Assembly (NCBI RefSeq): GCF_003334335.1
Contig: NZ_QOWQ01000007.1
Direction: 5' to 3' (one strand)
Length of the DNA: 64,000 nucleotides
From: Escherichia coli
GTDB lineage: Bacteria; Pseudomonadota; Gammaproteobacteria; Enterobacterales; Enterobacteriaceae
The notes beneath the pieces are model-generated. The model saw only the letters and a list, made by a program, of their open reading frames with translations. It did no database searches and was not told the DNA's origin. Made by a program: the position numbers and the translations under genes. Positions 12,097 through 64,000 of the stretch are shown here, piece by piece (within the stretch, counting starts at the first letter, position 1; every line of letters starts with the position of its first letter).

Positions 12097-12172
12097 TGGC
12101 TCCTCTGACTGGACTCGAACCAGTGACATACGGATTAACAGTCCGCCGTTCTACCGACTGAACTACAGAGGA
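12097..12172 (-). tRNA. asnT: tRNA-Asn (GUU)
   Basis: Reverse complement matches the tRNA-Asn sequence (TCCTCTGTAGTTCAGTCGGTAGAACGGCGGACTGTTAATCCG...CCA). Confidence 0.95.
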
Positions 12173-13163: not shown

Positions 13164-13253
13164 GGAGAGATGCCGGAGCGGCTGAACGGACCGGTCTCGA
13201 AAACCGGAGTAGGGGCAACTCTACCGGGGGTTCAAATCCCCCTCTCTCCGCCA
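13164..13253 (+). tRNA. serU: tRNA-Ser (CGA)
   Basis: GGAGAGATGCCGGAGCGGCTGAACGGACCGGTCTCGAAAACCGG...CTCTCCGCCA, 90 nt with long variable arm. Confidence 0.95.
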
Positions 13254-60281: not shown

Positions 60282-62110
60282 GTGATCAGTTTGACGCAAA
60301 AGCGTTTTTAAAAACCGTAACCAGCCAGCCAGGCGTTTATCGCATGTACGATGCTGGTGGTACGGTTATCTATGTCGGCAAAGCGAAAGACCTGAAAAAA
60401 CGGCTTTCCAGCTATTTCCGTAGCAACCTCGCTTCGCGCAAAACCGAAGCGCTGGTCGCCCAGATCCAGCAAATTGATGTAACGGTTACTCACACAGAAA
60501 CCGAAGCGCTGTTGCTGGAACACAACTACATCAAACTCTATCAGCCGCGTTACAACGTTTTGCTACGCGATGATAAATCATATCCTTTTATCTTCCTGAG
60601 TGGTGATACCCACCCGCGTCTGGCGATGCATCGTGGTGCGAAGCATGCCAAAGGTGAATATTTCGGCCCGTTCCCGAATGGCTATGCCGTACGTGAAACA
60701 CTGGCGCTACTACAAAAGATTTTCCCCATTCGCCAGTGCGAAAATAGTGTTTATCGCAATCGCTCGCGTCCGTGTCTGCAATACCAGATAGGGCGCTGTC
60801 TGGGACCGTGCGTTGAAGGACTGGTGAGTGAAGAAGAATACGCTCAGCAGGTCGAGTATGTGCGCCTGTTTTTGTCTGGCAAAGATGATCAGGTGCTTAC
60901 GCAACTCATTAGTCGTATGGAAACTGCCAGCCAGAATCTGGAGTTTGAAGAAGCTGCACGTATTCGCGACCAAATTCAGGCGGTGCGACGCGTCACCGAA
61001 AAACAATTCGTTTCCAATACCGGCGACGACCTCGACGTTATTGGTGTGGCGTTCGATGCGGGCATGGCTTGTGTCCACGTATTGTTCATTCGTCAGGGCA
61101 AAGTGCTCGGCAGCCGCAGCTATTTCCCGAAAGTGCCTGGCGGTACGGAACTGAGCGAGGTGGTAGAAACCTTCGTAGGCCAGTTCTATTTACAAGGCAG
61201 CCAGATGCGCACCTTACCGGGTGAGATCCTGCTCGATTTTAATCTTAGCGATAAAACGCTGCTCGCCGATTCCCTTTCAGAACTGGCGGGACGCAAGATT
61301 AATGTTCAAACCAAACCTCGCGGCGATAGGGCGCGTTATCTGAAACTCGCGCGCACCAATGCGGCGACGGCCTTAACCAGCAAACTTTCGCAGCAATCTA
61401 CCGTTCACCAGCGACTGACCGCGCTTGCCAGCGTGTTGAAATTGCCGGAAGTGAAGCGGATGGAGTGCTTTGACATCAGCCATACCATGGGCGAACAAAC
61501 CGTCGCTTCCTGTGTGGTGTTTGATGCTAACGGCCCGCTGCGTGCGGAGTATCGGCGCTATAACATTACAGGCATCACGCCGGGCGATGATTATGCGGCG
61601 ATGAATCAGGTGCTGCGTCGGCGTTATGGTAAAGCCATTGACGACAGTAAGATCCCGGATGTGATCCTTATCGACGGCGGCAAAGGCCAGCTTGCGCAGG
61701 CGAAAAATGTCTTCGCCGAACTGGATGTCTCATGGGATAAAAATCATCCGCTGCTACTTGGCGTTGCCAAAGGAGCAGATCGTAAGGCTGGACTGGAAAC
61801 GCTGTTCTTTGAGCCGGAAGGTGAGGGATTTAGTTTGCCGCCAGATTCACCCGCGCTGCATGTTATCCAGCATATTCGCGATGAATCACATGATCACGCG
61901 ATTGGCGGGCACCGTAAAAAACGGGCGAAGGTCAAAAATACCAGTTCCCTGGAAACCATTGAAGGCGTCGGGCCAAAACGTCGGCAAATGTTGTTGAAAT
62001 ATATGGGCGGTTTGCAAGGTTTACGTAACGCCAGCGTCGAGGAAATTGCAAAAGTGCCGGGTATTTCGCAAGGTCTGGCAGAAAAGATCTTCTGGTCGTT
62101 GAAACATTGA
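60278..62110 (+). CDS. uvrC: excinuclease ABC subunit C
   Basis: 610-aa ORF with GIY-YIG N-terminus ([24 protein letters not shown]). Confidence 0.95.
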
Positions 62111-62166
62111 TGTCTCTGTAGCAACATAGGGGTAATCTTACTGACAACAGATAGTTACCCGTCATT

Positions 62167-62715
62167 ATGCAATTTAATATCCCTACGTTGCTTACACTGT
62201 TCCGTGTCATCCTTATCCCATTCTTTGTATTGGTCTTTTATCTGCCTGTCACCTGGTCGCCGTTTGCCGCCGCGCTCATTTTCTGCGTCGCGGCGGTGAC
62301 TGACTGGTTCGATGGTTTTCTGGCACGCCGCTGGAACCAGAGTACCCGGTTTGGTGCTTTCCTTGACCCTGTGGCAGATAAAGTTCTCGTGGCTATCGCC
62401 ATGGTGCTGGTAACCGAGCATTATCACAGCTGGTGGGTGACATTACCGGCGGCAACGATGATCGCCCGTGAAATTATTATTTCTGCGCTACGCGAATGGA
62501 TGGCGGAGTTGGGTAAACGCAGTAGCGTGGCCGTCTCCTGGATTGGGAAAGTGAAAACCACTGCCCAGATGGTGGCGTTGGCATGGCTGCTGTGGCGTCC
62601 GAACATTTGGGTTGAGTACGCCGGTATTGCACTTTTCTTTGTGGCTGCGGTACTGACTCTGTGGTCAATGTTGCAATATTTGAGCGCTGCGCGTGCAGAT
62701 TTGCTTGATCAGTGA
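62167..62715 (+). CDS. pgsA: CDP-diacylglycerol--glycerol-3-phosphate 3-phosphatidyltransferase
   Basis: 182-aa multi-TM ORF with CDP-alcohol phosphatidyltransferase motif ([10 protein letters not shown]). Confidence 0.9.
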
Positions 62716-62866
62716 TCGTTTCGGCGCAATTTTCAGCAAACGATCAAAAGTGGTGAAAAATATCGTTGACTCATCGCGCCAGGTAAGTAGAATGCAACGC
62801 ATCGAACGGCGGCACTGATTGCCAGACGATAATAAAATCAAGTGATTAACTGATTGCTTGATGAAT

Positions 62867-62951
<85 letters not shown>

Positions 62952-62996
62952 ACATCGGCCTCAAGCGGATGTCTGGCTGAAAGGCCTGAAGAATTT

Positions 62997-63070
62997 GGCG
63001 CGTTAACAAAGCGGTTATGTAGCGGATTGCAAATCCGTCTAGTCCGGTTCGACTCCGGAACGCGCCTCCA
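62997..63070 (+). tRNA. cysT: tRNA-Cys (GCA)
   Basis: GGCGCGTTAACAAAGCGGTTATGTAGCGGATTGCAAATCCGTCTAGTCCGGTTCGACTCCGGAACGCGCCTCCA. Confidence 0.95.
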
Positions 63071-63082
63071 CTTTCTTCCCGA

Positions 63083-63169
63083 GCCCGGATGGTGGAATCG
63101 GTAGACACAAGGGATTTAAAATCCCTCGGCGTTCGCGCTGTGCGGGTTCAAGTCCCGCTCCGGGTACCA
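63083..63169 (+). tRNA. leuZ: tRNA-Leu (UAA)
   Basis: GCCCGGATGGTGGAATCGGTAGACACAAGGGATTTAAAATCCCTCGGCG...GGGTACCA, 87 nt with long variable arm. Confidence 0.95.
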
Positions 63170-63237
63170 TGGGAAAGATAAGAATAAAATCAAAGCAATA
63201 AGCAGTGTCGTGAAACCACCTTCGGGTGGTTTTTTTG
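63170..63237 (+). ncRNA. 3' external transcribed spacer of the glyW-cysT-leuZ transcript (3'ETS-leuZ sRNA sponge) with terminator
   Basis: Segment between leuZ CCA end and the accacc-ttcg-ggtggt + TTTTTTT terminator (63215-63237); function by analogy with the described 3'ETS-leuZ. Confidence 0.5.
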
Positions 63238-64000
63238 TTCTTGTGTTTTTGTATGTGGCGGTAACGTGGCGATGGTATGGCGATATGTAGGAGCAAGAGT
63301 AAAGCAGGCTCAGTAGCAATTGCCTTTGCTGTCATAACTGCGCTTTTACTACTCTCGGTGTTATCCACAGTTTGTTGGTGTGGATTGCTTTCAATGATGC
63401 TGAAAAGAAAAGCCCGCAGTTTTTACGCTACGGGCTTTGTTTTTCTTTGTGACTTGCGTGTGAGGGTGCTACTTTCGGCCTTACCCTGGCAACCGATTGA
63501 CGGGGGATTGCTCCCCCGTCGCGGTTTCTTACGGTTTACACTGCAAGAACGCCGCAAATTCTGACCACATGATGTTAAGTCTGAACTCACACGGTGAACG
63601 GTGTATCATCCAGACGGTCAACAACATGGTTAAGCATAAAATGCTCACGATGATCGTTTTTTGCGGCATAGCGCTTGCTCCTTTTTCAAAGAGGCGCTAA
63701 CCTTCCACTTGTCACGGTTAGATGGTCAGGGCCTCGGGTTAAACAATATGTTTGACTCGGGGCCTTTCCACATCCGGCCTTCAGGTAATCCTTCCAGCCG
63801 TCAGCCGAAAGGCACCCGCGCGTAATGTACAGTTTTTGACTGGGAGGCGCAATCGCCCAGGGGGAGGCTGAGTTGATCCCTTCCCCGGTGGCATGATTTG
63901 AAAGCGTCTGCGGGGACGACTCCCATAAGCGCTAACTTAAGGGTTGTGGTATTACGCCTGATATGATTTAACGTGCCGATGAATTACTCTCACGATAACT

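Follow-up and report, generated by a model that had tools for sequence, protein, structure and literature searches.

The external transcribed spacer at the 3' end (3'ETS) of the tRNA operon glyW-cysT-leuZ of Escherichia coli K-12, 3'ETS-leuZ, is an RNase E-made RNA that pairs with the small RNAs RyhB and RybB, as summarised in bioRxiv 10.1101/2021.04.25.441314; the original K-12 description (Lalaouna et al. 2015, Mol Cell 58:393) is known here through citing papers. In a pcnB mutant the fragment over-accumulates, and mutations in the pairing site of the ETS restore RyhB stability in that background (PMC6191717), while proximity ligation by TRIC-seq recovers the contact between RybB and 3'ETS-leuZ in vivo (bioRxiv 10.1101/2025.09.11.675593). 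Salmonella enterica has an RNase E-dependent sponge from the same tRNA precursor, leuZ-3'ETS, and TIER-seq placed its RNase E-made 5' end at an adenine that lies 15 nt downstream of mature leuZ (PMC5222698). Other transcript by-products are also able to pair with RybB and titrate it, namely the internal transcribed spacer (ITS) of metZ-metW-metV (which pairs with MicF as well), FtsO, and RbsZ, but they come from other loci and have sequences different from that of 3'ETS-leuZ. The leuZ gene is in addition an integration site, occupied by prophage Sp13 in O157:H7 Sakai and by an integrative element in O145:H28.

The DNA analysed here (the window) is a stretch of 64,000 nucleotides of E. coli that carries the glyW-cysT-leuZ operon close to its 3' end (Table 1). 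The sequence 3' of the leuZ CCA end is UGGGAAAGAUAAGAAUAAAAUCAAAGCAAUAAGCAGUGUCGUGAAACCACCUUCGGGUGGUUUUUUU, and the trailer matches the ncRNA b4759 of K-12 MG1655, annotated in the RefSeq record as "small regulatory RNA 3'ETSleuZ" and located immediately 3' of leuZ, at 67 of 67 nt, both by alignment and by string comparison. An initial annotation of this DNA had placed the 3'ETS at 63170-63237 and had proposed its alignment to the K-12 RNA, which leaves no mismatch. The start of that segment holds, with ARAGORN and Rfam both ending leuZ at 63169, directly before the trailer, whereas its end has to be moved, the K-12 annotation closing 1 nt earlier, at 63236. A 116-nt query spanning the trailer matched 5,425 of the 5,426 complete E. 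coli genomes (at 99% identity or more in 5,164 of them), so that the resemblance reflects homology and not chance. Operon, position, and 67-nt sequence are the same as in K-12, and because of this identity the RyhB and RybB sites, the A-rich tract, and the terminator are also those of b4759. Judged by its sequence, the segment is the known 3'ETS-leuZ element, and the RNA itself offers nothing new. Since it is unchanged from K-12, the same function is most likely here, and we put at about 93% the probability that the trailer is 3'ETS-leuZ, a tRNA-derived sponge of RyhB and RybB that would work as it does in K-12.

Table 1. Features around the leuZ trailer, in window positions
Feature	Positions	Strand	Basis
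Candidate sigma-70-like promoter for glyW-cysT-leuZ transcription	62766-62793	+	consensus scan only
glyW, tRNA-Gly(GCC)	62867-62942	+	ARAGORN; Rfam tRNA 69.1 bits; gene order as in K-12
cysT, tRNA-Cys(GCA)	62997-63070	+	ARAGORN; Rfam tRNA 54 bits
leuZ, tRNA-Leu(UAA), CCA encoded	63083-63169	+	ARAGORN; Rfam tRNA 57.7 bits; identical to K-12 leuZ
Probable attL core, 124-bp identity block	63115-63238	+	exact second copy in EC2 (L005 38347-38470)
3'ETS-leuZ, full 67-nt trailer (K-12 b4759)	63170-63236	+	100% identity to NC_000913.3 1991748-1991814
ARN-type A-rich tract, proposed Hfq distal-face contact	63174-63194	+	triplet count
Probable mature 53-nt sponge species	63184-63236	+	homology to Salmonella RNase E cut
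sRNA-pairing region	63189-63212	+	RNAduplex and contiguous-pair search against K-12 RyhB and RybB
RybB pairing sites	63189-63195 and 63200-63207	+	
RyhB pairing sites	63193-63199 and 63201-63212	+	
Rho-independent terminator	63212-63236	+	terminator scan; MFE structure (-13.2 kcal/mol) of the isolated ETS
P2-like prophage left arm, cut by window end	63239-64000	.	EC2 annotation of matching region; Rfam; ORF list
hok-like ORF, 46 aa	63529-63669	-	annotated Hok/Gef in EC2
sok-like RNA match	63659-63817	-	Rfam 47.9 bits, below gathering score 59
Start of ogr	within 63239-64000		EC2 annotation of matching region

As in K-12, pgsA lies upstream of glyW-cysT-leuZ; the consensus scan found a candidate promoter between the pgsA stop and glyW, with TTGACT and TAGAAT boxes at a 16-nt spacing (10 matches out of 12). 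About 50 kb upstream of leuZ, the window contains a tRNA-Asn(GTT) at 12097-12172 (-) and a tRNA-Ser(CGA) at 13164-13253 (+). In K-12 asnT and serU lie about 51 kb from leuZ, and on this map the window would seem to be collinear with K-12 from the tRNA-Asn and tRNA-Ser genes to leuZ. An 801-bp query across the locus matched all 5,426 complete E. coli genomes. Among the RefSeq strains examined, only K-12 carries the ncRNA feature, and the sponge is unlabelled in the others. A search of positions 62000-64000 with Rfam 15 in E-value mode found no family covering the trailer; sroD, the one model with an overlapping hit, was rejected as chance (20.4 bits against a gathering score of 50, E = 0.58). 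A coding reading was also considered, with an ATG at 63168 that overlaps the CCA end and starts a 10-codon frame (MGKIRIKSKQ*), and found unsupported; all open reading frames of 20 aa or more across the segment overlap tRNA genes or the terminator.

The trailer is closed by a strong intrinsic terminator, as the initial annotation had stated; the hairpin and its T-run were found both by the terminator scan and by the fold. In the minimum free energy (MFE) structure of the isolated ETS, the 5' part is unstructured and is followed by the hairpin GAAACCACC-UUCG-GGUGGUUUU at 63212-63233, a 9-bp stem with a UUCG loop, after which the remainder of the 7-T run extends to 63236, leaving three U unpaired. 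Structure probing of 3'ETS-leuZ agrees with this fold, including the three unpaired U (bioRxiv 10.1101/2021.04.25.441314). The A-rich tract of the unstructured part reads AAA GAU AAG AAU AAA AUC AAA, that is, seven triplets, two of them imperfect, unpaired in the MFE fold. The count is the same as in the published description of the Hfq distal-face site of 3'ETS-leuZ, which has seven ARN repeats when two mismatches are allowed (bioRxiv 10.1101/2021.04.25.441314). Nucleotide 15 of the trailer is an A (63184) and the nucleotide after it a U, in keeping with the +2 U rule for RNase E. By homology with the adenine cut of Salmonella, cleavage at A63184 would probably yield a 53-nt RNA; the two sites, in different bacterial species, are presumed to correspond.

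Complementarity to the seed regions of RyhB and RybB, the second check proposed in the initial annotation, is retained. Every pairing base is present, and no sRNA-complementary base, the loss of which had been named as evidence against retention, is missing from a sequence that is K-12 base for base; the published pairing sites are intact because of this identity. With the K-12 sequences of RyhB and RybB as queries, nt 35-46 of RyhB form 12 contiguous base pairs, one of them G-U, with nt 32-43 of the ETS (AGCAGUGUCGUG), and nt 50-56 of RyhB add a second helix of 7 bp with ETS nt 24-30. The RybB seed (nt 3-10) pairs over 8 bp with ETS nt 31-38, and RybB nt 13-19 over 7 bp with ETS nt 20-26. Duplex energies were calculated for single-stranded regions only and compared with those of 2,000 dinucleotide shuffles of the ETS. 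The RyhB duplex has a dG of -29.2 kcal/mol versus a shuffle mean of -15.1 +/- 3.1 (z = -4.6), an energy reached by 1 of the 2,000 shuffles. For RybB the values are -20.7 kcal/mol versus -14.2 +/- 3.0 (z = -2.2; 66 of 2,000 shuffles as low), so that this complementarity is by itself only modestly above the shuffles and owes its significance to experiments in the literature. A full-length RNAduplex energy for RyhB (-45.8 kcal/mol) was discarded, being an end-to-end value that is inflated and blind to intramolecular structure. Both sRNA genes lie outside the 64-kb window, and their presence in the source genome is expected from species-wide conservation, with RyhB found in 5,425 and RybB in 5,419 of 5,426 complete E. 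coli genomes.

What we observed at this locus is the identity to K-12, the complementarity, the terminator, the ARN tract, and a trailer conserved throughout E. coli; release by RNase E, binding to Hfq, and action as a sponge are carried over from published work in K-12 and Salmonella, and would proceed in the source strain as in K-12. Following that literature, glyW-cysT-leuZ would be transcribed as one precursor ending at the intrinsic terminator, and RNase E would cut the trailer during tRNA maturation, probably before A63184, freeing an RNA of about 53 nt. This RNA would carry the ARN tract for Hfq's distal face, together with the single-stranded pairing region and the terminator hairpin with its short U-tail. 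The pairing region would bind RyhB, the iron-sparing sRNA, and the 5' seed of RybB, the envelope-stress sRNA. As a constitutively made tRNA by-product, the sponge may titrate the few sRNA molecules present under non-inducing conditions and in this way set a threshold for RyhB and RybB action. The segment might instead be only the trailer and terminator of a tRNA operon, degraded after processing and without regulatory effect in the source strain. A terminator is required in any tRNA operon, and both hairpin and T-run are present here; the fragment is normally kept at a low level by PAP I-dependent decay (PMC6191717), and in wild-type cells the sponge has subtle effects that come down to suppressing noise. 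However, the sequence is identical to that of an RNA for which experiments have demonstrated pairing with RyhB and RybB as well as their destabilisation, and the non-terminator part that includes the pairing core is invariant in the diverged E. coli copies examined, where it is the flanking bases of the trailer and the loop of the terminator that vary, which makes a silent trailer very improbable. The claim of the initial annotation that the RyhB/RybB sponge layer is retained is supported by the K-12 identity and the intact pairing sites.

What distinguishes this locus from K-12 lies on the 3' side of the trailer. In K-12 the operon is followed by the intergenic region of yecA, whereas here the similarity to K-12 ends at 63238 in the alignment, and a P2-like prophage begins 2 nt past the T-run of the leuZ terminator; the window covers its first 762 bp, and the 260 bp that follow the junction are common to only 10 genomes. 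This context, in which the attachment site probably encloses the sponge, had been overlooked in the initial annotation. The best match was strain EC2 (99.6% over 801 bp, window positions 62700-63500). EC2 (NZ_CP058571.1, 2111400-2155000) has a P2-like prophage of about 38 kb 3' of leuZ, followed by yecA, with the order hok (Hok/Gef), ogr (ogr/Delta), gpD, tail genes including the tail sheath, baseplate, lysis, capsid, terminase, replication, and integrase. The second copy of the 124-bp block lies in EC2 between the phage integrase and yecA, about 38 kb away. The repeat and the integrase seen in EC2, which has the same junction as the window, point to a position of the sponge inside the attL of a P2-like prophage.

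Attachment sites in tRNA genes are usually laid out from a tRNA loop through the 3' part of the gene. As in sites of the anticodon-loop class, the block here runs from the anticodon loop past the 3' end of the tRNA, and the element therefore rebuilds leuZ on integration. It begins at 63115, where the anticodon loop of leuZ also begins (TTTAAAA, with the anticodon at 63117-63119), and it ends 2 nt past the T-run, which takes it 69 nt beyond the tRNA gene, over the whole trailer and the terminator. We found no discussion, in the literature searched, of an attachment block that covers an entire regulatory trailer and its terminator. In the standard model the crossover occurs in the anticodon loop, and the phage is the source of all sequence 3' of that point in the copy attached to the operon, the whole sponge included. 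Because the attL identity block encloses the segment, the sponge copy attached to the operon was probably supplied by the phage. The two att copies of EC2 are identical, and for this reason the sequence cannot tell which of them is phage-derived; strain 12867 carries a related prophage, and its attL differs from both attR and K-12 at the final T of the T-run, a difference that fixes only the 3' edge of the block. Because the copy attached to the operon is identical to that of the host, function should not change. The trailer query matched 7,102 places in 5,425 genomes, which suggests that a sizeable minority of E. coli carries the duplication. A terminator scan of the EC2 attR returned no call and is uninformative on termination between int and attR, given that it missed even the K-12-type leuZ terminator by assigning part of the T-run to the stem.

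The visible end of the prophage bears a hok/sok-type toxin-antitoxin module. Downstream of hok there is a terminator-like site at 63438-63409 (-), and its hairpin probably explains weak Thr_leader matches. Between the leuZ terminator and hok, we also observed an ORF of 95 aa (63277-63564, +) that is unannotated in EC2 and whose N-terminal half is hydrophobic; O157 EC4115 and strain 12867 have a hypothetical protein of 93 aa (WP_001303543.1) at a comparable position.

Copies of the trailer were also found in phage genomes and next to other elements at leuZ. The lambdoid phages mEp390 (L007 2501-2621) and Fostie (L009 2501-2621) carry the 3' part of leuZ and the whole 3'ETS at about 88% identity, and the mEp390 record annotates the block as attP. 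In both phages the core AUAAGCAGUGUCGU is invariant, while there is a compensatory change in the T-stem, further changes are found around nt 8-12 and 24-29, and the terminator loop is GAAA in place of UUCG; the second RyhB/RybB helix AAAGCAAU becomes AA-UGAU. Only these two were counted as real attP copies. Phage records 520873 and vB_EcoM-*, which contain the block at 98-100%, were rejected as attP, since they include the host yecA and are excised-prophage predictions that show attR. The P2-type integrase is only 21-26% identical to the mEp390-type integrase and to another leuZ-adjacent integrase, and on this basis the elements that use the leuZ site appear to be independent. The operon-attached ETS of O157:H7 EC4115 (L010 3031-3135) has the change G9C and, in the T-run, T7C, the latter also present in strain 12867, and that of strain 2017.04.02CC (L011 3031-3135) is substituted at three positions, has a deletion of 2 nt, and differs in the loop. 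In the operon-attached copies at other leuZ elements (L010, L011, L012, and L013), the pairing region, nt 20-43, is untouched.

It is conceivable, though we consider it unlikely, that leuZ-integrating elements (P2-like, mEp390, Fostie, and at least one other island), by carrying the whole sponge in their attachment sites, could let lysogeny alter the dosage or the sequence of the sponge and thereby the thresholds of RyhB and RybB. If this were true, the host copy would be displaced to a position immediately downstream of the integrase gene of the phage, which would make co-transcription possible, and the invariant AUAAGCAGUGUCGU core of the phage copies would reflect selection to keep host sRNA buffering. 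Very improbable as well is the reading that the segment matters mainly as DNA, as the attL core of a P2-like prophage conserved for homology in integration and excision and not for its RNA: leuZ is a documented integration site, EC2 has the 124-bp block a second time at the far end of its prophage, and the same block serves elements whose integrases are only distant relatives (21-26% identity), but DNA and RNA roles are not mutually exclusive, tyrosine integrases need only a short overlap and core sites and not 124 bp, and most E. coli genomes are single-copy (median of 1 place per genome), like K-12 without an element at this position, so that their conservation cannot come from att function.

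With the trailer read as the K-12 sponge, the source strain would keep an unchanged tRNA-derived buffer of RyhB (iron) and RybB (envelope-stress) signalling, a retention to be expected in every E. coli. As for the prophage context, it adds little and represents no new kind of system. Nevertheless, leuZ lysogens hold two copies of the sponge, which is relevant to read mapping, to the design of deletions, and to comparisons of sponge level among strains.
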